64,000 nucleotides of DNA from Escherichia coli. GTDB lineage: Bacteria > Pseudomonadota > Gammaproteobacteria > Enterobacterales > Enterobacteriaceae. The stretch is from the NCBI RefSeq assembly GCF_002854065.1, contig NZ_CP024147.1; one strand, written 5' to 3'. Shown piece by piece: positions 8,672-50,830 of the stretch. The position numbers and the translations under genes are program-made. The notes below the pieces were generated by a model. It worked only from the letters and a program-made list of their open reading frames with translations, did not search any database and was not told the DNA's origin. Numbering within the stretch: position 1 is the stretch's first letter; every line of letters starts with the position of its first letter.

Positions 8672-9295
8672 TTAAATTTTATTTGCTTTAATCACCACCA
8701 GATGACGTTCGCCATCCAGGGCTGGAACCTGAAGTTTAACCACTGATTCGACCTGATATTCTTCGGGCAACAAAGCGATTTCATCTTCCGGCATTTGCCC
8801 TTTCAGCGCGTAGAAACGGCCTTGCTCACCAAGAAGATGGTGGCACCAGCTCACCATATCGTTCAGAGAGGCAAAAGCGCGGCTAATTACGCCATCAAAT
8901 GGCGGCTCTGAAGGAAACTCTTCTACCCTGCTCTGTACTGGCTCAATATTCTCCAGTTTAAGCTCATGTTGCACCTGACGAAGGAAACGCACGCGTTTAC
9001 CAAGGCTATCCAACAGAGTGAAATGGGCTTCAGGACGCACGATAGAGAGTGGAATGCCAGGCAGTCCAGGACCGGTGCCGACATCGATAAACCGTTCACC
9101 TTGCAGATACGGTGCCACCACAATGCTATCGAGAATATGGCGTACCAGCATCTCATTAGGATCGCGGACCGAAGTCAGGTTGTACGCTTTGTTCCATTTA
9201 TGCAGCATATTCACGTAGGCAATAAGCTGGTTTTTCTGGTGATCGGTAAGCGAAATACCTGCGTCTTTCAGCAGTAAGGAGAGTTTGTTGAGCAC
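8672..9295 (-). CDS. rsmG: 16S rRNA m7G527 methyltransferase RsmG (GidB)
   Basis: 207-aa ORF with SAM-binding motif [10 protein letters not shown]; directly downstream of mnmG. Confidence 0.95.
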
Positions 9296-9358
9296 GGTGA
9301 TTACCTGTTCTTGATGCGTTGCCTGGTAAGCGGGTGCTTACCAGGCATTTTTAATGCG

Positions 9359-11248
9359 TTATGCGCTACGACGCAGCATACCCTGTTTTTTCAGCCACAC
9401 CAGCAGAATGGAGATGGCCGCAGGCGTGACGCCAGAAATACGTGAAGCCTGGCCGATAGAGGCCGGTTTGTGATCGTTAAGTTTGGCGATCACTTCGTTA
9501 GAAAGACCGGATACCTGGCGGTAATCCAGTGTCGCGGGTAGCAAGGTGTTCTCGTTACGCAGCTGCTTTTCGATCTCATCTTGCTGGCGCGCGATATAAC
9601 CTTCGTATTTAACCTGAATCTCAACCTGTTCCGCCGCCTGTTCGTCTGTCAACGCAGGGGCAAACGGCGTCAGCGTGGTTAATTTTTCATAAGTCATTTC
9701 CGGACGACGCAGCAGATCTTCACCACTGACTTCACGGGAAAGCGGCGCAGTCAGGTGAGCATTCACTTCGGCTGCAGCTTCCGCCGACGGGGTTACCCAG
9801 GTCGATTTCAGACGCTGACGCTCACGCTCGATATTCTCAAGTTTCTCGTTAAAGCGCGCCCAACGTTCGTCATCCACCAGGCCCAGTTCACGACCGATTT
9901 CAGTCAAACGCAGATCCGCATTATCTTCGCGCAGCATCAGACGATATTCTGCGCGCGAGGTAAACATACGATACGGTTCTTTGGTTCCTAAAGTGCACAG
10001 GTCATCAACCAGTACGCCGAGATAGGCCTGAGAACGCGCCGGAGCCCAACCTTCTTTGTCAGCAGACAGACGGGCAGCGTTAAGACCGGCCAGCAAACCT
10101 TGCGCAGCGGCTTCTTCGTAACCGGTAGTGCCGTTAATCTGACCAGCAAAGAACAGCCCCTGGATAAACTTGCTCTCCAGCGTCGGTTTCAGGTCGCGAG
10201 GATCGAAGAAGTCATACTCAATGGCATAACCCGGACGCACGATCTTCGCGTTTTCCATCCCCTGCATAGAGCGGACGATTTGCATCTGCACATCGAACGG
10301 CAGGCTGGTGGAGATACCGTTCGGATAAATTTCGTTAGAGGTCAGCCCTTCCGGTTCAAGGAAGATCTGATGCTGATTTCTGTCGGCGAAGCGCATGACT
10401 TTGTCTTCGATCGACGGGCAGTAGCGTGGGCCGACACCTTCGATCACCCCTGCGTACATTGGGCTACGATCGAGGTTACTGCGGATCACATCATGGGTTT
10501 TCTCGTTGGTATGGGTGATATAACACGGCACCTGCTGTGGATGCTGGGACGCATTGCCCATAAAAGAGAATACCGGCATTGGGTTATCACCATGCTGTTG
10601 CGCAAGCACGCTAAAGTCGATGGTTCGAGCATCAATACGCGGTGGTGTCCCGGTTTTCAGACGACCAACGCGTAGCGGAAGTTCACGCAAACGGCGAGAA
10701 AGCGGAATGGACGGCGGATCACCAGCACGGCCACCGCTGTAGTTATCCAGACCGATATGAATTTTACCGTCGAGGAACGTCCCAACGGTGAGCACGACGG
10801 CTTTGGCACGGAACTTCAGTCCCATTTGGGTAACAGCACCGACCACACGATCGTTTTCGACAATAAGATCTTCAACCGCCTGCTGGAAGATCATCAGATT
10901 CGGTTGGTTCTCCAGCGCCGTACGTACCGCCTGACGGTAGAGCACACGATCCGCCTGAGCTCGGGTAGCACGAACTGCCGGTCCCTTGCTTGCGTTTAGT
11001 ATCCTAAACTGGATACCCGCCTGATCGATCGCTTTCGCCATCAGACCGCCAAGTGCATCCACTTCTTTTACCAGATGTCCCTTCCCAATACCGCCGATCG
11101 CCGGGTTGCAGCTCATCTGCCCCAGAGTGTCGATATTGTGTGTCAAAAGCAGAGTCTGTTGACCCATACGCGCCGCGGCCATCGCGGCCTCGGTGCCTGC
11201 ATGACCCCCGCCAATGATGATGACGTCAAAAGGATCCGGATAAAACAT
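9359..11248 (-). CDS. mnmG: tRNA uridine 5-carboxymethylaminomethyl modification enzyme MnmG (GidA)
   Basis: 629-aa ORF with N-terminal FAD-binding motif [12 protein letters not shown]; adjacent to oriC. Confidence 0.97.
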
Positions 11249-11337
11249 GGTGATTGCCTCGCATAACGCGGTATGAAAATGGATTGAAGCCCGGGCCGTG
11301 GATTCTACTCAACTTTGTCGGCTTGAGAAAGACCTGG

Positions 11338-11606
11338 GATCCTGGGTATTAAAAAGAAGATCTATTTATTTAGAGATCTGTTCTATTGTGATCTCTTATT
11401 AGGATCGCACTGCCCTGTGGATAACAAGGATCCGGCTTTTAAGATCAACAACCTGGAAAGGATCATTAACTGTGAATGATCGGTGATCCTGGACCGTATA
11501 AGCTGGGATCAGAATGAGGGGTTATACACAACTCAAAAACTGAACAACGGTTGTTCTTTGGATAACTACCGGTTGATCCAAGCTTCCTGACAGAGTTATC
11601 CACAGT
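11338..11606. other. oriC: Chromosomal replication origin oriC
   Basis: Three tandem 13-mers GATCTATTTATTT / GATCTGTTCTATT / GATCTCTTATTAG; DnaA boxes TGTGGATAA (11416-11424), TGTGAATGA (11471-11479), TTATACACA (11522-11530), TTTGGATAA (11557-11565), TTATCCACA (11596-11604); about a dozen GATC sites; flanked by mnmG and mioC. Confidence 0.97.
11359..11402. repeat. oriC DNA unwinding element: L, M, R AT-rich 13-mers
   Basis: Three direct 13-bp repeats each starting with GATCT at 11359, 11375 and 11390. Confidence 0.95.
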
Positions 11607-11626
11607 AGATCGCACGATCTGTATAC

Positions 11627-12070
11627 TTATTTGAGTAAATTAATCCACGATCCCAGCCATTCTTCTGCCGGATCTTCCGGAATGTCGTGATCAAGAATGT
11701 TGATCTTCAGTGTTTCGCCCGTCTGTTTTGCACCGGAATTTTTGAGTTCAGCCTCGAGTTTATCGATAGCCCCACAAAAGGTGTCATATTCACGACTACC
11801 AATACCGATTGCGCCAAAGCGGACCGCAGAAAGATCGGGCTTCTGTTCCTGCAATGCTTCATAGAAAGGAGAAAGGTTGTCCGGAATATCTCCGGCACCG
11901 TGGGTGGAGCTGATAACCAGCCAGATCCCCGAGGCAGATAAATCTTCCAACAGCGGACCGTGCAGCGTTTCGGTGGTAAAACCCGCCTCTTCCAGCTTTT
12001 CAGCCAGGTGTTCTGCTACATATTCGGCACCGCCGAGGGTGCTGCCGCTGATAAGAGTGATATCTGCCAT
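11627..12070 (-). CDS. mioC: Flavodoxin-like protein MioC
   Basis: 147-aa ORF (MADITLISGSTLGGAEYVAEHLAEKLEEAGF...), flavodoxin fold; transcribed toward oriC. Confidence 0.95.
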   Translation of the reverse strand: MADITLISGSTLGGAEYVAEHLAEKLEEAGFTTETLHGPLLEDLSASGIWLVISSTHGAGDIPDNLSPFYEALQEQKPDLSAVRFGAIGIGSREYDTFCGAIDKLEAELKNSGAKQTGETLKINILDHDIPEDPAEEWLGSWINLLK

Positions 12071-12159
12071 AAACCGCCACCTTTATTAAGAGTGGCGTAT
12101 TGTACGCTGTGAACGCGTTGGGATCTACCTGTGGAAAAGTATGGGATTAAAAAAGCCGA

Positions 12160-12618
12160 TCAGGGCTTGATGGTACGCATGATCGGGTTCTGCAGGACGA
12201 TCAGTGTCTCGGTGGACTGAATTTCATCAATTGTTTGGATCTTGTTGATAAGTACATGCTGGAGAGCATCGATCGAACGGCACATCACTTTTATAAAGAT
12301 GCTGTAGTGGCCGGTGGTGTAGTACGCCTCGGTCACTTCATCGAGACTTTCCAGCTTTGCCAGCGCGGAAGGATAGTCTTTGGCGCTCTTTAATATAATG
12401 CCGATAAAGCAGCCTACGTCATAACCGAGCTGCTTCGGGCTGACATCAATACGCGCCCCGGTAATGATTCCCGCCTGCTTCATTTTCTCTACTCGAACGT
12501 GAATCGTCCCCGGACTGACGCCAAATTGTTTCGCCAGTTCGGCGTAAGCGGTGCGCGCATTGCCCATTAATGCTTCCAGGATGCCACGGTCCAGATTGTC
12601 GATCAGATAATTTTCCAT
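12160..12618 (-). CDS. asnC: Lrp/AsnC-family transcriptional regulator AsnC
   Basis: 152-aa ORF with HTH region and AsnC-type ligand-binding domain; divergent from asnA. Confidence 0.95.
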   Translation of the reverse strand: MENYLIDNLDRGILEALMGNARTAYAELAKQFGVSPGTIHVRVEKMKQAGIITGARIDVSPKQLGYDVGCFIGIILKSAKDYPSALAKLESLDEVTEAYYTTGHYSIFIKVMCRSIDALQHVLINKIQTIDEIQSTETLIVLQNPIMRTIKP

Positions 12619-12769
12619 AGGATTTTCTTATGCGGATTGATGATTCATTCTATTTTAGCCTTCTTTTTTAATGAATCAAAAGTGAGTTAGGCTTTTTATT
12701 GAATGATTATTGCATGTGTATCGGTTTTTGTTGCTTAATCATAAGCAACAGGACGCAGGAGTATAAAAA

Positions 12770-13762
12770 ATGAAAACCGCTTACATTGCCAAACAACGCC
12801 AAATTAGCTTCGTGAAATCTCACTTTTCTCGCCAACTGGAAGAACGTCTGGGGCTGATCGAAGTCCAGGCGCCGATTCTTAGCCGTGTGGGGGATGGCAC
12901 GCAGGATAACTTGTCGGGCTGTGAAAAAGCGGTGCAGGTAAAAGTGAAAGCTCTGCCTGATGCCCAGTTCGAAGTGGTTCATTCACTGGCGAAGTGGAAA
13001 CGTCAGACCTTAGGGCAACACGACTTCAGCGCGGGCGAAGGGCTGTACACGCACATGAAAGCCCTTCGCCCCGATGAAGACCGTCTTTCTCCGTTGCACT
13101 CGGTCTATGTTGACCAGTGGGACTGGGAACGCGTAATGGGCGACGGTGAGCGTCAATTCTCGACTCTGAAAAGCACGGTAGAGGCGATCTGGGCGGGAAT
13201 TAAAGCAACCGAAGCTGCGGTTAGCGAAGAGTTTGGCCTGGCACCGTTCCTGCCGGATCAGATCCACTTCGTACACAGCCAGGAGTTACTGTCTCGTTAT
13301 CCGGATCTCGATGCCAAAGGGCGTGAGCGGGCGATTGCGAAAGATCTTGGCGCGGTATTCCTCGTCGGGATTGGCGGCAAGTTGAGTGATGGTCATCGTC
13401 ACGACGTGCGCGCACCGGATTATGATGACTGGAGCACCCCGTCAGAGCTGGGCCATGCGGGCCTGAACGGCGATATTCTGGTGTGGAACCCGGTACTGGA
13501 AGATGCGTTTGAGCTTTCTTCCATGGGGATCCGCGTGGATGCCGACACGTTGAAGCATCAGTTGGCGCTGACCGGTGATGAAGATCGTCTGCAGCTGGAA
13601 TGGCATCAGGCGTTGCTGCGCGGTGAAATGCCGCAGACCATCGGCGGCGGTATCGGCCAGTCTCGTTTGACCATGCTGCTGCTGCAACTGCCGCATATCG
13701 GCCAGGTTCAGTGTGGAGTATGGCCAGCTGCTGTTCGCGAGAGCGTCCCTTCTCTGCTGTAA
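12770..13762 (+). CDS. asnA: Aspartate-ammonia ligase (asparagine synthetase A)
   Basis: 330-aa ORF ([38 protein letters not shown]...). Confidence 0.97.
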
Positions 13763-13766
13763 TAAT

Positions 13767-15218
13767 TTATCGCCGCCAGCGTCTGAGCAGGCGGCTTCGC
13801 ATCCCGGTATCAAAGCGCCAGATATGATCGAAAATGCGCATGATGCCGGGTTTGCCGTGTGCCGACATCGCCACGGCATGAAAGCGATGCTGATGTACCC
13901 GCTGCAGCTCTTTCACTTTACTCGTCACGTCGTCAGGCAACCGCTGAGCGATAAAATCAGAAATCACCACCGCATCGGCATCAAACCATTCCCTGCTTTG
14001 CAAGCGTTCCATAATGGCGCGAAAACAACTGGCAAGATCGGTGCCGCCACGAAACTGCTGGCTTAAAAAACGGATTGCTTGTTCGATGCCTTGTGGGCCT
14101 GAAAGCTCATAACGGACGATCTCGGTGGAAAATAGCATAATATAGCAGCGCCGGTTTTCAGCGAGAGCAATGCGCATCAAAGCCAGGCAGAACGCTTTCG
14201 CACACTGTTCATTAAAGCCGCCCATTGAGCCGGAAGTATCCACGCAGACAATAAACGGTCCGCGCGGCTGTTCGTCGTAATCTTTATGCACCACCGGGCG
14301 TTCGATCACTTTTTCACGCCACGACTCACCGTGCAGGCGATAGGTGAGCAACTGTTTTTCCACCAGCCGACGGTAAAACTCATACTCCAGTTCCGTTATC
14401 CCTAGTGTCGCCAGTTCTGGCGGCAGAAGACGTAAAATATCATCGCTTTGTTGCAGACCATCAACCTGCTCAGGAACCGTCGCCGGTTCGCGCACCATGG
14501 TGCGGAAGGTTTCCATCTGCGCATCGTTGCGCGGTATTGATTTGGCTTCCCGGGAACGCCCCAGCTGTTCTGCCAGGTGTTTCAGTTCCGGCTGTTCGTT
14601 AAGAAATTCACCGTATTTCACAATCAACTGATAGTCGCCACGTTTAAGCTGACCGGCGCTCATATCCCACAGACGACCAGCTGCGGTATTATTATCTGCG
14701 AGAATCGGTTCAAGTTGTCCGCTCAGCGTCATGCGTTCCTGAACTTCACTCAACAGTTGTTCGCGTTCTTCTTCTAATAGCTGTTGATTTAACGTCGTTG
14801 CTTGCACGATCAGACTTAAACGCCAACGCTGGAGAAAAAGTGTGTGTAACGCTGAAGTGATCGAGCTGTTAGCATCAACCAACTGTCGGGCTTGTTCTGC
14901 CCATGGGGAATTCAGACGATGCAGTAAGTCCAGGATCTGTGGTAGCTGCATAATAAACTGCGGCGTGGAGAGGAGCTGGCTTTGCTGATAGCACATCACC
15001 TCTTCGGTGAGTTCCGGCGGGACTCGGGCATCTTTCAGCCGATTACGCAGCGCCTCACGCCAGCGGGGAACATCATCAGTGATTGCCGCCTTCAGTCGTG
15101 GGAATTTTTCAAAGAAGACCGCCAGCTGCGGTGAGGCCAGCAGCGCGATGATCATCTCTTCGATCAATCCCTCTTCGCTGACGGCCAGCATCACATTAAG
15201 CGTATCCAGCGTTAGCAT
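13767..15218 (-). CDS. viaA: VWA-domain protein ViaA, partner of RavA
   Basis: 483-aa ORF with C-terminal von Willebrand A motif (DTSGSM); overlaps ravA stop by 7 bp. Confidence 0.9.
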
Positions 15219-16708
15219 TGTTGTGCCTGGCGAATCTGTGCGCCGACATCCTGTAGGCTGGCTTCAATGCGACCTAACCAGTCGCCAGGGATAAACAGAC
15301 ATTTTTGCTGTTCGCTGAATAAAGCGTGTTGCTTGCGCCAGTCGCTTTCAAGCTCTTCCAGTTGTTGTTTTATTTCACCTGGCAGACCTTCAGCCGATGA
15401 ACCGGGAAGTGCCAGCGTACTGCCTTGTAAACTTACATCGCGTACAACAAGATGTTGGGCGCTATCCACTTCTAGATTCAATTTCTGGGCAAAGCCGATA
15501 CCGTTCAGTTTGCCGCGAATTTCACCACCTTTACTCAACCACTGTTCCAGCGCGTTACGCTCAAAGGAGATATGAACCACTTCCATATCATGCAATTTTA
15601 ACGGTTTTTGCAGCAGCAGAGTCAGAGTGGAAGCAGTAACGTTAACAGGAAGTTGATACTGCTGACGACGGCTGAAAATGCCGCCCAGACGAATTACCGT
15701 TAAGGCTGTTTTATCGCTTTGTTGCTGCTGGAGTTGCAGGTGACGTTGCACAATCGCGCCCAGGCGGGTCAACATCCCTTGCTGTTGCCAGGCATGACCG
15801 GTCATCAATACATCAATTTGTTGTTGTATCAAATTCAGGCTTTGCGCGTCATACCACAGGCAATCTTTCAGCAAAATGAGATCTACCGGGGCAACAGCAC
15901 TGCGACCGCTAAAAAAGGCGCTGGCCTGCAATAAGCGGATCGCTTTTTTCCAGCGACGATCCGAGACATAAGGCGCATCCGGTAATTTATCCAGTTGCTG
16001 GCGCAGCATAAAAATCAGCTCAAATACATGATCGGGCAGCGTAATTTCACCAATCTCTTTCTGCCAGCGTTCATATTCTTCATCTGTGACCTGCAAGGCA
16101 TCAGGAACCGGATTGTCGTTTTCATCCTGTTGACTGGTCAGCATGGAGCGGAAATTCGCTTTATCCTGCACTTTATCTAACCACAGACGAATCAGCATGC
16201 GGTCATATAACGCTTCCAGACTGCTGTCTGCTTCCGGCAGCTCGTTGGAGGCCGCCACCAGCAGACGCATCGGGATTTTTTCTACGTGTGCACCGTTGCG
16301 GAACTGGCGCTCGTTAATGGCGGTGAGCAGGGTATTAAGAATTGCCGGGCCCGCTTTCCAGATCTCATCCAGAAAGACAATTTCTGCTTCCGGCAGGTAA
16401 CCGCTGGTTAAACGTTCATAGCGCCCTTCATCTTTTAGCGCCTGAATAGAAAGGGGACCAAAAACTTCTTCCGGCGTGGAGAAGCGGGTCATCAGATATT
16501 CAAACGCGCGGGCATTCTGAAAGGCGAATTTTAAGCGCCGGGCGATCAAACTTTTGGCAATACCTGGCGGGCCAAGGAGGAACACACTTTCACCACTTAA
16601 TGCCGCTAATAAACACAAGCGGATGGCGTGGCTACGTTCATAAAGCCCCTTTTCCAACGAACTGCTCAGGCGGGAAATTCTTTCCGCTAATAAATGAGGG
16701 TGAGCCAT
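15212..16708 (-). CDS. ravA: MoxR-family AAA+ ATPase RavA
   Basis: Walker A GPPGIAKS; start placed at [10 protein letters not shown] (498 aa), the ORF track extends 8 codons upstream. Confidence 0.9.
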
Positions 16709-16930
16709 AATGAAGTGGCGTCCTTTCGTCAAAAGTTCTGCGTAAATTGCGAGTATAGACGTTTCTTGCTGGTGGCTAAAATAGTCTCAAAGGGGGGGTA
16801 TTTTTCTTTGAGCCAGGTTAATGTGGCCGCATTTAGGAGTACGATTTTGCCGTTAATCGTGCATACTGTGCGCTTTTTTGTGGGCCAAGGAACTAAGCAC
16901 ACATTTCATATTTCAACGAAAGACTAGTCT

Positions 16931-18799
16931 ATGAGCACTGATAATAAGCAATCATTGCCCGCGATTACCCTCGCGGCGATTGGAGTTGTCTACGGCGATA
17001 TTGGTACCAGCCCGTTATATACACTTCGTGAATGTTTGTCCGGCCAGTTTGGTTTTGGCGTTGAACGCGATGCCGTGTTTGGCTTTTTATCGCTGATCTT
17101 CTGGCTGCTAATCTTTGTGGTTTCCATTAAATATCTCACCTTCGTGATGCGGGCAGATAACGCCGGTGAGGGGGGGATCCTGACGTTGATGTCGCTTGCC
17201 GGGCGTAATACGTCGGCGCGAACCACATCAATGCTGGTGATTATGGGGCTAATCGGCGGCAGCTTTTTCTATGGTGAAGTCGTCATAACACCCGCTATTT
17301 CGGTGATGTCAGCCATTGAAGGTCTGGAAATCGTCGCCCCGCAGCTGGATACCTGGATAGTTCCCCTCTCAATTATCGTTCTCACTTTATTATTTATGAT
17401 TCAAAAGCATGGCACGGCTATGGTCGGTAAGATGTTTGCGCCGATCATGCTGACCTGGTTTTTGATTCTGGCAGGACTGGGGTTACGTAGCATTATTGCT
17501 AACCCGGAAGTGCTGCATGCGCTGAATCCGATGTGGGCGGTGCATTTCTTCCTTGAATACAAAACGGTTTCTTTTATTGCATTAGGGGCAGTGGTGCTGT
17601 CGATTACGGGGGTCGAGGCGCTGTATGCTGATATGGGACACTTTGGTAAGTTCCCTATTCGTCTGGCGTGGTTCACTGTCGTATTACCTTCCTTAACTCT
17701 TAATTACTTCGGCCAGGGAGCGCTGTTGTTAAAGAACCCGGAAGCGATTAAGAACCCGTTCTTCCTTTTGGCACCGGACTGGGCGCTGATCCCGCTGCTG
17801 ATCATCGCCGCACTGGCGACGGTAATCGCCTCGCAGGCGGTTATCTCTGGCGTCTTTTCATTGACGCGTCAGGCGGTACGTCTGGGATATTTGTCGCCGA
17901 TGCGCATTATTCACACCTCCGAAATGGAGTCAGGGCAAATCTATATTCCGTTTGTGAACTGGATGCTCTATGTCGCGGTCGTGATTGTGATTGTCAGCTT
18001 TGAGCACTCCAGCAACCTGGCGGCGGCGTACGGGATTGCGGTGACCGGAACCATGGTGCTGACGTCTATTCTCTCGACTACCGTGGCACGTCAGAACTGG
18101 CACTGGAATAAGTATTTTGTTGCGCTGATCCTGATTGCTTTCCTTTGTGTCGATATTCCATTGTTCACCGCTAACCTCGATAAACTGCTCTCCGGCGGCT
18201 GGTTGCCATTGAGCCTCGGTACTGTGATGTTTATCGTGATGACCACCTGGAAGAGCGAGCGTTTCCGCTTGCTGCGGCGGATGCATGAACATGGTAACTC
18301 TCTGGAAGCGATGATTGCTTCGCTGGAGAAATCACCGCCTGTTCGCGTGCCCGGGACCGCGGTGTATATGTCGCGTGCAATCAACGTCATTCCCTTTGCG
18401 CTGATGCATAACCTTAAACATAACAAGGTATTGCATGAGCGGGTGATTCTGTTAACTCTGCGCACCGAAGACGCGCCATATGTCCATAACGTCCGTCGGG
18501 TACAGATTGAACAACTGTCGCCCACTTTCTGGCGCGTGGTGGCAAGTTATGGTTGGCGAGAAACGCCAAACGTGGAAGAAGTTTTCCACCGCTGCGGTCT
18601 GGAAGGATTAAGTTGCCGGATGATGGAAACCTCCTTCTTTATGTCGCATGAGTCGTTGATCCTCGGCAAACGCCCGTGGTATTTGCGTCTGCGCGGCAAG
18701 CTGTACTTGCTGCTGCAACGTAATGCGCTGCGTGCACCAGATCAATTTGAAATCCCGCCAAACAGGGTTATCGAACTGGGTACTCAGGTCGAAATCTAA
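16931..18799 (+). CDS. kup: Low-affinity K+ uptake transporter Kup (TrkD)
   Basis: 622-aa polytopic membrane ORF ([34 protein letters not shown]...). Confidence 0.95.
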
Positions 18800-18804
18800 C
18801 GCCA

Positions 18805-18840
18805 GACGCCTCCTTTCTTCATAAGGGGGCGTTTTTGTTT
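18805..18840 (+). terminator. Probable intrinsic terminator after kup
   Basis: Imperfect hairpin (acgcctcc...gggggcgt) followed by TTTTTGTTTT immediately after the kup stop. Confidence 0.45.
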
Positions 18841-18934
18841 TCATGGTTAATCACCATGTAAAACGTTTCGAGGTTGATCACATTTCCGTAACGTCACGAT
18901 GGTTTTCCCAACTCAGTCAGGATTAAACTGCGGG

Positions 18935-18954
18935 TCAGCGAAACGTTTCGCTGA
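18935..18954. promoter_or_regulatory. RbsR (LacI-family) operator: perfect 20-bp palindrome TCAGCGAAACGTTTCGCTGA
   Basis: Perfect inverted repeat ending 11 bp before the rbsD ATG; the core AAACGTTTCG also occurs at 18861-18870. Confidence 0.8.
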
Positions 18955-18965
18955 TGGAGAAAAAA

Positions 18966-19385
18966 ATGAAAAAAGGCACCGTTCTTAATTCTGATATTTC
19001 ATCGGTGATCTCCCGTCTGGGACATACCGATACGCTGGTGGTGTGTGATGCTGGTTTACCCATCCCCAAAAGTACAACGCGTATCGATATGGCATTAACC
19101 CAGGGTGTACCTTCTTTTATGCAGGTGCTGGACGTCGTCACAAATGAAATGCAGGTCGAGGCTGCCATTATCGCGGAAGAGATCAAACAACATAATCCGC
19201 AACTCCACGAAACGTTGCTCACTCACCTTGAGCAGCTGCAAAAACACCAGGGAAATACCATTGAAATTCGTTACACCACGCATGAACAATTCAAACAACA
19301 AACCGCAGAAAGTCAGGCGGTAATTCGCAGCGGAGAATGTTCTCCGTATGCGAATATCATTCTCTGTGCTGGCGTGACGTTCTGA
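18966..19385 (+). CDS. rbsD: D-ribose pyranase
   Basis: Start placed at [14 protein letters not shown] (139 aa); first gene of the rbs operon. Confidence 0.9.
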
Positions 19386-19392
19386 GGCCGTC

Positions 19393-20898
19393 ATGGAAGC
19401 ATTACTTCAGCTTAAAGGCATCGATAAAGCCTTCCCGGGCGTAAAAGCCCTCTCGGGCGCTGCGTTAAATGTCTATCCGGGCCGCGTGATGGCGCTGGTG
19501 GGCGAAAACGGCGCGGGTAAATCCACCATGATGAAAGTGCTTACTGGTATCTATACTCGCGATGCCGGTACGCTTTTATGGCTGGGGAAAGAAACGACAT
19601 TTACCGGGCCGAAATCTTCCCAGGAAGCCGGGATTGGGATTATCCATCAAGAACTGAACCTGATCCCGCAGTTAACCATTGCCGAAAACATTTTCCTCGG
19701 TCGTGAGTTTGTTAATCGCTTTGGCAAAATTGACTGGAAAACCATGTATGCCGAAGCGGATAAATTGCTGGCTAAACTTAACCTGCGCTTTAAAAGCGAC
19801 AAGCTGGTGGGCGATCTTTCCATCGGTGACCAGCAAATGGTTGAAATAGCCAAAGTGCTGAGCTTTGAGTCGAAAGTCATCATTATGGATGAACCGACCG
19901 ATGCGCTGACCGATACCGAAACCGAATCCCTGTTCCGCGTCATCCGCGAACTAAAATCGCAAGGCCGCGGCATTGTCTATATCTCCCACCGTATGAAAGA
20001 AATCTTCGAGATTTGCGATGACGTTACCGTTTTTCGTGACGGACAATTTATTGCTGAGCGCGAAGTGGCATCACTGACCGAAGATTCGCTGATTGAGATG
20101 ATGGTGGGTCGCAAGCTGGAAGATCAATATCCGCACCTGGACAAAGCGCCGGGAGATATCCGCCTGAAAGTCGATAATCTCTGCGGACCTGGCGTTAACG
20201 ATGTCTCTTTTACTTTACGCAAAGGCGAAATTCTTGGCGTCTCTGGTTTGATGGGCGCAGGTCGTACCGAACTGATGAAAGTGCTCTACGGTGCACTACC
20301 GCGCACCAGCGGTTACGTCACCCTGGATGGGCATGAAGTCGTTACCCGTTCACCGCAGGATGGCCTGGCAAACGGCATTGTGTATATCTCCGAAGACCGT
20401 AAACGTGACGGTTTAGTGTTGGGCATGTCAGTAAAAGAGAACATGTCGCTGACCGCGCTGCGCTACTTCAGCCGCGCTGGCGGCAGTTTGAAGCATGCCG
20501 ATGAACAGCAGGCAGTGAGTGATTTTATTCGCCTGTTCAATGTGAAAACGCCGTCGATGGAACAGGCAATTGGTCTGCTTTCCGGTGGCAATCAGCAAAA
20601 AGTGGCGATTGCCCGCGGTCTGATGACACGGCCCAAAGTATTGATCCTTGATGAGCCTACCCGTGGCGTAGATGTCGGCGCGAAAAAAGAGATCTATCAA
20701 CTGATTAACCAGTTCAAAGCCGATGGCTTGAGCATCATTCTGGTGTCATCGGAGATGCCAGAAGTATTAGGCATGAGCGATCGCATCATCGTCATGCATG
20801 AAGGGCATCTCAGCGGGGAATTTACTCGTGAGCAGGCCACCCAGGAAGTGTTAATGGCTGCCGCTGTGGGCAAGCTTAATCGCGTGAATCAGGAGTAA
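19393..20898 (+). CDS. rbsA: Ribose ABC transporter ATP-binding protein (duplicated ABC domains)
   Basis: 501-aa ORF with two Walker A motifs (GENGAGKST and GLMGAGRTE). Confidence 0.95.
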
Positions 20899-20902
20899 AA
20901 AA

Positions 20903-21868
20903 ATGACAACCCAGACTGTCTCTGGTCGCCGTTATTTCACGAAAGCGTGGCTGATGGAGCAGAAATCGCTTATCGCTCTGCTGGTGCTGATCGCGATTGT
21001 CTCGACGTTAAGTCCGAACTTTTTCACCATCAATAACTTATTCAATATTCTCCAGCAAACTTCGGTGAACGCCATTATGGCGGTCGGGATGACGCTGGTG
21101 ATCCTGACGTCGGGCATCGACTTGTCGGTAGGTTCTCTGTTGGCGCTAACCGGCGCAGTTGCTGCATCTATCGTCGGCATTGAAGTCAATGCGCTGGTGG
21201 CTGTCGCTGCTGCTCTCGCGTTAGGTGCCGCAATTGGTGCGGTAACCGGGGTGATTGTAGCGAAAGGTCGCGTCCAGGCGTTTATCGCTACGCTGGTTAT
21301 GATGCTTTTACTGCGCGGCGTGACCATGGTTTATACCAACGGTAGCCCAGTGAATACCGGCTTTACTGAGAACGCCGATCTGTTTGGCTGGTTTGGTATT
21401 GGTCGTCCGCTGGGCGTACCGACGCCAGTCTGGATCATGGGGATTGTCTTCCTCGCGGCCTGGTACATGCTGCATCACACGCGTCTGGGGCGTTACATCT
21501 ACGCGCTGGGCGGCAACGAAGCGGCAACGCGTCTTTCTGGTATCAACGTCAATAAAATCAAAATCATCGTCTATTCTCTTTGTGGTCTGCTGGCATCGCT
21601 GGCCGGGATTATTGAAGTGGCGCGTCTCTCCTCCGCACAACCCACGGCGGGGACTGGCTATGAGCTGGATGCTATTGCTGCGGTGGTTCTGGGCGGTACG
21701 AGTCTGGCGGGCGGAAAAGGTCGCATTGTTGGGACGTTGATCGGCGCATTAATTCTTGGCTTCCTTAATAATGGATTGAATTTGTTAGGTGTTTCCTCCT
21801 ATTACCAGATGATCGTCAAAGCGGTGGTGATTTTGCTGGCGGTGCTGGTAGACAACAAAAAGCAGTAA
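20903..21868 (+). CDS. rbsC: Ribose ABC transporter permease
   Basis: 321-aa polytopic membrane ORF between rbsA and rbsB. Confidence 0.95.
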   Translation: MTTQTVSGRRYFTKAWLMEQKSLIALLVLIAIVSTLSPNFFTINNLFNILQQTSVNAIMAVGMTLVILTSGIDLSVGSLLALTGAVAASIVGIEVNALVAVAAALALGAAIGAVTGVIVAKGRVQAFIATLVMMLLLRGVTMVYTNGSPVNTGFTENADLFGWFGIGRPLGVPTPVWIMGIVFLAAWYMLHHTRLGRYIYALGGNEAATRLSGINVNKIKIIVYSLCGLLASLAGIIEVARLSSAQPTAGTGYELDAIAAVVLGGTSLAGGKGRIVGTLIGALILGFLNNGLNLLGVSSYYQMIVKAVVILLAVLVDNKKQ

Positions 21869-27432: not shown

Positions 27433-28974
<1,542 letters not shown>

Positions 28975-50370: not shown

Positions 50371-50500
50371 AGTGTGGTAGAATATCAGCTTACTATTGCT
50401 TTACGAAAGCGTATCCGGTGAAATAAAGTCAACCTTTAGTTGGTTAATGTTACACCAACAACGAAACCAACACGCCAGACTTATTCCTGTGGAGTTATAT

Positions 50501-50830
50501 ATGAGCGATAAAATTATTCACCTGACTGACGACAGTTTTGACACGGATGTACTCAAAGCGGACGGGGCGATCCTCGTCGATTTCTGGGCAGAGTGGTGCG
50601 GTCCGTGCAAAATGATCGCCCCGATTCTGGATGAAATCGCTGACGAATATCAGGGCAAACTGACCGTTGCAAAACTGAACATCGATCAAAACCCTGGCAC
50701 TGCGCCGAAATATGGCATCCGTGGTATCCCGACTCTGCTGCTGTTCAAAAACGGTGAAGTGGCGGCAACCAAAGTGGGCGCACTGTCTAAAGGTCAGTTG
50801 AAAGAGTTCCTCGACGCTAACCTGGCGTAA
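50501..50830 (+). CDS. trxA: Thioredoxin 1
   Basis: Active site WCGPC; start placed at [22 protein letters not shown] (109 aa), the ORF track extension of 35 codons is rejected. Confidence 0.97.

Follow-up and report, generated by a model that had tools for sequence, protein, structure and literature searches.

The ravA-viaA operon of an Escherichia coli chromosome: a MoxR-class ATPase and its VWA-domain partner

Within the window, a stretch of 64,000 nucleotides of Escherichia coli DNA, two genes of the minus strand lie between asnA and kup. The gene ravA, at 15212-16708 when counted from its ATG, encodes a MoxR-class AAA+ ATPase of 498 amino acids, and viaA, at 13767-15218, encodes the VWA-domain partner of RavA, with 483 amino acids. 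Both are annotated under these names in the E. coli chromosome record NZ_CP182139.1, to which the DNA of the locus is 100% identical. The gene asnA (12770-13762, plus strand) converges on viaA, with 4 bases between the two stop codons, and kup (16931-18799) diverges from ravA. The neighbours and the coordinate pattern match those of b3745/b3746 in K-12. The preliminary description of this DNA had placed the pair at 13767-16708 next to asnA and had judged it not to be new. The placement is exact to the base and the judgement is right, as ravA-viaA is already known and has been studied for twenty years, and the present copy adds no new variant. Of 5426 complete E. coli genomes, 5414 have the pair, which occupies a single place in each and always lies between asnA and kup. 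As far as the sequence can tell, ravA-viaA is here very probably an intact chromosomal E. coli operon carrying an ordinary allele, and no result speaks against this identification.

The program-made list of open reading frames starts ravA further upstream, at a TTG at 16732. This longer form was rejected as the ATG is conserved, in-frame stops lie upstream of it elsewhere, and the solved protein begins MAHPHLL. Of 80 loci, 76 keep the ATG; the remaining four have alignments that fall short of RavA residue 1. An in-frame stop is located 2-9 codons upstream of the ATG in many species, and the TTG is confined to Escherichia, Citrobacter and close relatives. Judged by these alignments, the ATG is the true start of ravA.

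RavA scores 992.9 bits against the NCBIfam equivalog NF010054 (ATPase RavA, cut-off 681), with residues 1-498 lying on profile positions 1-498, and ViaA scores 877.5 bits against the equivalog NF008230 (RavA stimulator ViaA, cut-off 500) over residues 1-483. Both scores are far above the curated family cut-offs and therefore the two open reading frames are not chance ones. The HMM searches assigned MoxR/AAA_5 to RavA and VWA to ViaA, as had been predicted from the letters. The Pfam families matched by RavA are bpMoxR, AAA_5, AAA_lid_8, LARA_dom and ATPase_RavA_C, the best match being PF20030 bpMoxR (E = 1.5e-56, residues 11-206), and weak sub-threshold matches were obtained to Mg_chelatase and AAA_3. 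ViaA matches VWA_CoxE and VWA_2 above their cut-offs, over residues 320-457.

The Walker A motif (P-loop) GPPGIAKS that the preliminary description had read in ravA is present at 16550-16573 on the minus strand (residues 46-53). It is invariant in the sequences of 77 species and contains K52, the residue altered in the ATPase-dead K52Q allele (PMC3893208). The Walker B region FLDEIW is located at 16358-16375, minus strand (residues 112-117), with D114 and E115 invariant in 77 sequences. The LdcI-binding LARA domain occupies 15401-15706 of the minus strand (residues 335-436; Pfam PF20265, E = 1e-39) and agrees with 4UPF_D and 5FL2_K, two chains of LARA in isolation, while the C-terminal helix is recognized by PF12592 (E = 1.8e-23, residues 444-497). 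The mean identity across species is 0.69 for LARA versus 0.86 for the AAA+ module. The predicted layout of RavA is an N-terminal AAA+ module (K52, D114/E115), a helical bundle, a LARA beta-barrel that binds the lysine decarboxylase LdcI, and a C-terminal helix. The comparison with structurally characterised RavA, which the same description had proposed, gave 497 of 498 residues identical to the crystallised K-12 protein (PDB 3NBX/6Q7L). K-12 RavA assembles as hexamers, and by this near identity the present RavA would likewise be expected to form the hexamer, to act as an ATPase and to build the cage with LdcI (PMC6987120).

ViaA begins with a helical domain at 14646-15218, minus strand (residues 1-191), of which 188 of the 191 residues are identical to PDB 7UGC, the NMR structure for which the ViaA 'VAN' fold was described (PMC10585395). 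The VWA domain is encoded at 13809-14261, minus strand (residues 320-470), and its MIDAS consists of D327, S329, S331, T393 and D421, all five invariant in 72 species. The motif DTSGSM, claimed earlier for viaA, was found at 14223-14240 of the minus strand (residues 327-332) and forms part of this MIDAS. An Arg-rich amphipathic helix closes the protein (13770-13808, minus strand; residues 471-483). Its R476 and R479 are invariant in 72 species, and the helix is the published lipid-binding site of ViaA (PMC9489729). Read from its sequence, ViaA runs from a helical N-domain through a middle domain to a C-terminal VWA domain, in which the MIDAS metal site is complete, and ends with the Arg-rich amphipathic helix.

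Compared with K-12, ravA carries 18 nucleotide changes and one amino-acid change (S385N, in the LARA domain; DNA identity 98.8%), and viaA carries 23 nucleotide changes and four amino-acid changes (S59N, V90M, T119S and R214H; DNA identity 98.4%). All five substitutions are conservative and sit at positions that vary between species; RavA position 385, for instance, is E, S, D, A, G or N. Across 72-77 species, no variation is seen at any of the catalytic, MIDAS or lipid-binding residues. The upstream region of 222 bases differs from K-12 by one base. The present copy shares with K-12 RavA-ViaA (b3746/b3745; PDB 3NBX, 6Q7L, 6SZA and 7UGC) its position, the 7-base overlap of the genes, the lengths of 498 and 483 amino acids and all the functional residues.

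The overlap is the sequence ATGCTAA at 15212-15218 (minus strand), in which the start of viaA overlaps the stop of ravA by 7 bases and which presumably serves as a translational coupling site. The viaA ATG is contained in the junction sequence ...caa caa tgc taa, as the 7 bp overlap described before had it. The same description called the two genes likely co-translated. The tight stop/start junction in 80 of 80 species supports this, but an overlap alone is no proof, and "translational coupling" is the better term. In all 80 species viaA directly follows ravA on the same strand, with a 7-base overlap in 36, a 4-base overlap in 31, a 1-base overlap in 11 and a 5-base gap in 2. In other words, the form of the junction drifts across species and its tightness is always kept, from which we infer that ravA and viaA are translationally coupled. 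Ribosomes finishing ravA at the TAA would restart at the viaA ATG four bases upstream, and such a restart would help explain the reported RavA:ViaA ratio of 350:90 at native levels, with ~90 ViaA molecules per cell (PMC3893208). Folding showed no unusual degree of structure at the junction (z +0.65).

The 7-base overlap might instead be incidental, a matter of gene packing, with viaA translated from its own ribosome-binding site; we regard this as unlikely. Nearly all species share a conserved CAGGC located 10-16 bases before viaA begins, which is a possible weak Shine-Dalgarno sequence, and the weak AGG ~10 bases upstream of the ATG could permit independent initiation. However, CAGGC codes for a conserved Gln-Ala of RavA, which is enough to explain why it is conserved. 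In Pectobacterium, viaA is preceded by a separate AGGA and the 5-base gap, and genera differ in the length of the overlap (7, 4 or 1 bases), so that no single form is required; yet the junction is never wider than 5 bases in the 80 species, and the amount of ViaA is about one quarter of that of RavA, as expected for a restart after termination (PMC3893208).

The upstream elements were drawn from an alignment of 42 intergenic regions. A conserved element TCTATACT of the sigma-S type (C at -13) lies at 16752-16759 on the minus strand, ~44 bases upstream of the ravA ATG. We assign it as the probable -10 of the ravA-viaA promoter, the hexamer assignment being our own reading of the alignment. The AAGGA at 16721-16725 (minus strand) is Shine-Dalgarno-like and stands 12 bases before the ravA ATG, a spacing that is unusually long and conserved. 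The operon is described in PMC3893208 as sigma-S dependent, with one promoter transcribing both genes under sigma-S control and 206 upstream bases sufficing for native expression. Co-transcription from a single promoter is consistent with the absence of a gap between ravA and viaA. It is also consistent with the result of a sigma-70 consensus scan over 13400-17100, which gave one match, fewer than in shuffles, on the opposite strand.

Published work also places ravA-viaA under Fnr control in anaerobic conditions. No FNR box within 2 mismatches is found in the intergenic region, where the best candidate is TTGAGccagGTTAA with 3 mismatches; the Fnr control may therefore be indirect. Further upstream, a block at 16838-16893 (minus strand) is conserved between genera better than the coding sequences. 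It holds the invariant 18-mer GCGCACAGTATGCACGAT (16856-16873, ~150 bases upstream of ravA) and, flanking it, a palindrome CACGATT-N9-AAATCGTA (arms within 16838-16860) with conserved arms and a free spacer. The block gave no RNA-structure signal and no Rfam match, and it carries no annotation in NC_000913.3, being the one feature without annotation that came out of the analysis. Tentatively, GCGCACAGTATGCACGAT and the palindrome could be a candidate regulator site for ravA-viaA, perhaps for the divergent kup too. If the block binds a regulator, this might be the source of the anaerobic control that has been ascribed to Fnr.

Structured RNA was sought with Rfam at E <= 1 over 9000-21000, which gave no match, and by folding segments at the junction, in the upstream block and at the 3' end, which gave z-scores of -2.0 to +0.7. 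A hairpin at 13772-13795, in the C-terminal codons of viaA, was considered as a selected bidirectional terminator and rejected. It is lost where R482 is replaced by Q or K, with no compensatory change, and has no T-run on the asnA strand; from its sequence, the hairpin looks like a by-product of Arg/Trp codons.

The links to aminoglycoside sensitivity and respiratory complexes named in the preliminary description are found in the literature (PMC3893208, PMC9489729, PMC9973319, PMC10585395). K-12 ViaA has been shown to associate weakly with RavA in its nucleotide-loaded state and to stimulate the ATPase activity of RavA. ViaA is held at the inner membrane by its C-terminal helix through phosphatidic acid and cardiolipin (PMC9489729). 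[quoted passage not shown] The target is disputed between fumarate reductase or Nuo on the one side and membrane lipids together with the proton motive force on the other. Direct binding of ViaA to FrdA with inhibition of Frd was reported by one group (PMC10585395), whereas a second group, using purified FrdA and NuoEFG, detected no binding by ViaA at 5 uM (PMC9489729) and found Frd and Nuo activity unaffected (PMC9489729, PMC9973319).

The reading that we favour, with some reserve, is that of a membrane-anchored ViaA adaptor and a RavA motor acting on a client in the respiratory chain. ViaA would hold the client, for which FrdA and Nuo subunits have been reported, with its MIDAS face, and the RavA hexamer would supply the ATP-driven remodelling. 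Under low-energy conditions, this would alter respiratory activity or the proton motive force.

RavA and ViaA could conceivably act on the membrane itself and not on a protein client, a proposal that we hold to be doubtful. [quoted passage not shown] Lipid binding in dot blots, membrane localisation and cardiolipin enrichment upon ViaA overexpression have been described, and chromosomal lipid-binding mutants (ViaA R476E/R479E; RavA without LARA) are gentamicin tolerant (PMC9489729). Both arginines are present here, with the invariance noted above, and the failure to detect ViaA binding to purified FrdA or NuoEFG (PMC9489729) points the same way. However, the LARA lipid binding was not seen by the other laboratory, which reports Frd-dependent phenotypes (PMC10585395), and the lipid effects arose under overexpression, whereas the native level is ~90 ViaA molecules per cell (PMC3893208). 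The fully conserved MIDAS of ViaA in turn suggests a protein ligand.

It is improbable that RavA serves mainly in the LdcI-RavA acid-stress cage, shielding lysine decarboxylase from ppGpp, with ViaA and the respiratory and aminoglycoside effects being secondary. The LARA domain is clearly present by its PF20265 match, structures of the LdcI-RavA cage exist (6Q7L and related; PMC6987120, PMC4145799), and protection of LdcI from ppGpp appears in the summaries of earlier work in PMC9489729 and PMC10585395. But viaA stays beside ravA with a coupled junction in 80/80 species, ViaA binds RavA independently of LARA (PMC9489729), the aminoglycoside phenotype requires both ravA and viaA (PMC9973319, PMC10585395), and, within RavA, LARA is less well conserved than the AAA+ module.

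The bpMoxR match could also be taken to make RavA-ViaA a MoxR-vWA-beta-propeller ternary conflict (anti-invader) system, which is almost certainly wrong: the third, beta-propeller gene is absent, as E. coli and the other species all have asnA and kup as the neighbours, the PADLOC defence models gave no meaningful match for RavA or for ViaA, RavA has the LARA and C-terminal domains specific to it, the locus has a fixed core-genome position (5414/5426 genomes) and is no variable island, and the paper that defined the ternary systems lists RavA-ViaA apart from them, as a MoxR-vWA pairing studied before (PMC7159879). Membership in a defence system was rejected on the missing third component and the PADLOC result. 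What is shared with the ternary systems is the vWA partner and an AAA+ core that the bpMoxR profile fits best; RavA-ViaA differs from them in having neither beta-propeller gene nor effector and in its core-genome location.

A known counterpart is NorQ-NorD of Paracoccus denitrificans, in which a MoxR AAA+ protein is paired with a VWA partner for the insertion of non-haem iron into nitric oxide reductase; the comparison is drawn from the literature alone. Both systems have a hexameric MoxR ATPase and a partner that carries, after an N-domain and a linker, a C-terminal VWA domain with a DxSxS-T-D MIDAS, which in NorD is needed for the client and not for ATPase binding (PMC9976466). NorQ differs in being a bare AAA+ module without LARA or the C-terminal helix. 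In published models, NorD binds through a VWA 'finger' in the pore, whereas ViaA binds RavA through its N-terminal and middle part (PMC9976466, PMC10585395, PMC9489729). The NorQ-NorD client is defined (cNOR), whereas that of RavA-ViaA is disputed. CbbQ-CbbO (Rubisco activase) and the Mg-chelatase BchI/BchD likewise pair a MoxR-like or related AAA+ ring with a VWA/MIDAS adaptor that grips a client (PMC9976466). They have other clients and other accessory domains, and are likened to RavA-ViaA by this two-component logic and not by sequence orthology.

The sigma-S-type -10 element and the invariant upstream block could guide dissection of the promoter. The wider importance of RavA-ViaA is that it modulates aminoglycoside killing and persistence under anaerobic, low-energy conditions such as those of the gut.

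The two minus-strand genes were located in the open reading frame list and by sequence reading. viaA spans 13767-15218 (minus strand, 483 aa) and ravA, read from the ATG at 16708, spans 15212-16708 (minus strand, 498 aa). They share the seven bases ATGCTAA at 15212-15218 (minus strand), where the junction reads ...CAA CAA TGC TAA with the viaA ATG embedded. Motif searches placed the Walker A sequence GPPGIAKS at RavA residues 46-53 and DTSGSM at ViaA residues 327-332. asnA (12770-13762, plus strand) converges on viaA, and kup (16931-18799, plus strand) diverges from ravA. The reading frames, the overlap, both motifs and the asnA neighbour, as given in the preliminary description, were all confirmed in the sequence.

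The MoxR and VWA domains, for which an HMM check had been proposed, were assigned by both Pfam and NCBIfam. RavA matched bpMoxR (E = 1.5e-56), AAA_5 (5e-28) and AAA_lid_8 (5e-22), together with the RavA-specific LARA domain (1e-39) and RavA C-terminal domain (2e-23), whereas ViaA matched VWA_CoxE (2e-10) and VWA_2 (1e-8); all these Pfam matches exceed the curated cut-offs. The NCBIfam equivalogs "ATPase RavA" (993 bits against a cut-off of 681) and "ATPase RavA stimulator ViaA" (877 bits against 500) matched end to end. RavA is identical at 497/498 residues to Protein Data Bank entries 3NBX/6Q7L, and ViaA residues 1-191 agree with the NMR structure 7UGC at 188/191. Over its 3.35 kb the stretch matches the E. 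coli strain CUWW06 chromosome at 100% identity. Of 5426 complete E. coli genomes, 5422 carry it (5414 at 80% coverage or more), at a median of one place per genome and on none of their plasmids, always annotated as ravA/viaA between asnA and kup; identity over the stretch reaches at least 99% in only 182 of the 5422. K-12 MG1655 has the same layout. The finding is real, correctly interpreted and, as the preliminary description also held, already known.

This copy is not special. Its DNA is 98-99% identical to that of K-12, with 18 base changes in ravA that alter a single residue (S385N, within LARA) and 23 in viaA that alter four (S59N, V90M, T119S and R214H), a silent-change excess typical of purifying selection. 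For comparison we collected the locus of 80 further species, ranging from Escherichia albertii to Pectobacterium, whose RavA identities run from 96% to 67%. Among 77 aligned RavA sequences the whole Walker A motif, D114/E115, N155, R170 and R251/R252 are invariant, as are the MIDAS residues D327, S329, S331, T393 and D421 and the lipid-binding arginines R476 and R479 in 72 aligned ViaA sequences; in these alignments all five residues differing from K-12 lie at freely variable positions. The viaA frame is shortened in Phytobacter massiliensis (172 codons) and in Kluyvera genomosp. 3 (251 codons, with the RavA match beginning at residue 49), and each may be a pseudogene or an assembly error.

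viaA directly follows ravA in all 80 species. The genes share seven bases (ATGYTRA or GTGCTGA) in 36 species, four (ATGA, GTGA or TTGA) in 31 and a single base (TAATG) in 11; in the two Pectobacterium species a gap of five bases, with a separate AGGA, parts them. Its form thus drifts while its tightness stays constant, as expected if ravA termination and viaA initiation are linked. Folding of the junction RNA showed no unusual structure (z +0.65). Reported counts of about 350 RavA and 90 ViaA per cell (PMC3893208) fit inefficient restart at viaA. The preliminary description had called the genes likely co-translated; the tight junction and the protein counts support this in the form of translational coupling, which we infer from comparative sequence.

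The mechanical frame list prolonged ravA to a TTG at 16732. This longer form was rejected: outside Escherichia, Citrobacter and their close relatives the TTG is missing, an in-frame stop interrupts the frame 2-9 codons before the ATG in many species, and 76/80 loci keep the ATG at 16708 (the four remaining alignments fall short of RavA residue 1); the annotated ATG start is right. A Shine-Dalgarno-like AAGGA (16721-16725, minus strand) lies 12 bases before this ATG, a spacing that is unusually long yet conserved across genera and that may contribute to low RavA abundance.

Promoters recognized by sigma-S typically carry a C at -13 followed by TATACT. When 42 ravA-kup intergenic regions of comparable length were aligned, TCTATACT (16752-16759, minus strand), 44 bases before the ravA ATG, proved conserved, and it would be the -10 element of a sigma-S-dependent ravA promoter. 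Sigma-S dependence has been reported, with 206 upstream bases sufficient (PMC3893208). The operon is also said, in two papers (PMC9973319; PMC9489729) that both cite Wong et al. 2017, to be Fnr-controlled. A scan between ravA and kup found no FNR box with two or fewer mismatches; the nearest candidate has three. Upstream of ravA, a run of seven C is flanked by the arms of an inverted repeat of 7 bases (CTCAAAG-N13-CTTTGAG; 16785-16813, minus strand) that other species conserve poorly.

About 150 bases upstream of ravA, the intergenic region contains a block (16838-16893, minus strand) that is more conserved than the flanking genes. Its 18-mer GCGCACAGTATGCAYGAT is unchanged in 59/82 loci, including Erwinia, and its palindrome CACGATT-N9-AAATCGTA has conserved arms and a variable spacer. 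Folding gave no RNA-structure signal for the block, Rfam had no match to it, and K-12 leaves it unannotated. It probably serves as a regulator site or a promoter element, acting on ravA, on kup or on both. In Citrobacter its distance to the ravA ATG (about 148-165 bases) is kept and kup lies about 110 bases further away, a spacing that does not discriminate between ravA, kup and both because a single insertion could explain it. On the plus strand, a terminator-like hairpin with a six-T run after it (GTGCATACTGTGCGC TTTTTTGTGG; 16858-16882) overlaps the block, 50-70 bases upstream of the kup start; it could be a kup leader element or just the opposite-strand reading of the block's A-tract.

At the opposite end, asnA and viaA finish 4 bases apart (13760-13769), and in 35/39 measurable species their stop codons overlap or are separated by 0-4 bases, so close that the 3' end of each transcript must enter the coding sequence of the other. 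By microarray, asnA mRNA changed on ravA/viaA deletion or overexpression (PMC3893208). A GC-rich hairpin at 13772-13795, within viaA codons for an arginine-rich helix, is lost without compensation where R482 becomes Q or K and has no T-run on the asnA strand; we set it aside as a coding by-product.

The window covers the E. coli oriC neighbourhood, beginning with the atp operon, rsmG, mnmG, mioC (11627-12070), asnC and asnA and continuing through viaA-ravA, kup, the rbs operon and an rRNA operon to ilv, trxA, rho and wec genes. Judged from K-12, oriC is expected immediately left of mioC (about 11360-11590). The rRNA operon comprises 16S (27433-28974), tRNA-Glu (29060-29135), 23S (29329-32231) and 5S (32327-32442), then tRNA-Asp and tRNA-Trp. 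Directly after a match to the Rev39 5'UTR family (35865-36154), a 548-aa frame (36174-37820) is, from gene order, a putative intact ilvG, unlike the frameshifted K-12 copy. Taken with the 98-99% DNA identity to K-12, this shows that the window derives from another strain. Rfam matches above gathering score to the sRNA STnc410 (864-1021), StyR-44 in the rRNA spacer (29213-29321) and the TrxA 5'UTR thermometer (50431-50530) are expected in such an enterobacterial chromosome region.

For function we draw on published work on virtually identical proteins. RavA, a MoxR AAA+ ATPase, forms hexamers and binds LdcI, the acid-stress lysine decarboxylase, through its LARA domain in a 3.3-MDa cage (PMC6987120, PMC4145799). 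ViaA stimulates the RavA ATPase and binds RavA loaded with nucleotide weakly, with a KD of about 2 uM with ADP and 11-19 uM without nucleotide (PMC9489729, PMC10585395). Deletion of the operon increases gentamicin/kanamycin tolerance during fumarate respiration or fermentation, and overexpression sensitises aerobic cells to aminoglycoside in a manner that needs the proton motive force (PMC9973319). The Houry laboratory reported direct ViaA-FrdA binding, fumarate reductase inhibition and Frd-dependent persistence (PMC10585395); the Gutsche and Barras laboratories found no ViaA binding to purified FrdA or NuoEFG (PMC9489729) and unaffected FrdA/NuoEFG activities (PMC9489729, PMC9973319).

The Gutsche and Barras laboratories instead reported that ViaA specifically binds phosphatidic acid and cardiolipin via R476/R479, that RavA binds phosphatidylglycerol through LARA, and that lipid-binding mutants lack the sensitising effect (PMC9489729). 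Pure lipid remodelling by RavA-ViaA, the main rival reading, is possible but less likely than the protein-client model below. Membership in the MoxR-vWA-beta-propeller conflict systems, the source of bpMoxR, the top Pfam match of RavA, fails on four counts: the third gene of the ternary system is absent in E. coli, K-12 and the other-species loci, neither protein has a meaningful match to PADLOC defence models, the pair holds a fixed core-genome position, and the authors who described those systems count RavA-ViaA as a different pairing that had been studied before (PMC7159879). In NorQ-NorD, the MIDAS is required for the client but dispensable for the ATPase (PMC9976466). Because of this analogy and the invariant ViaA MIDAS, we somewhat favour a model in which ViaA would be a membrane-anchored adaptor that presents a protein client to the RavA motor.
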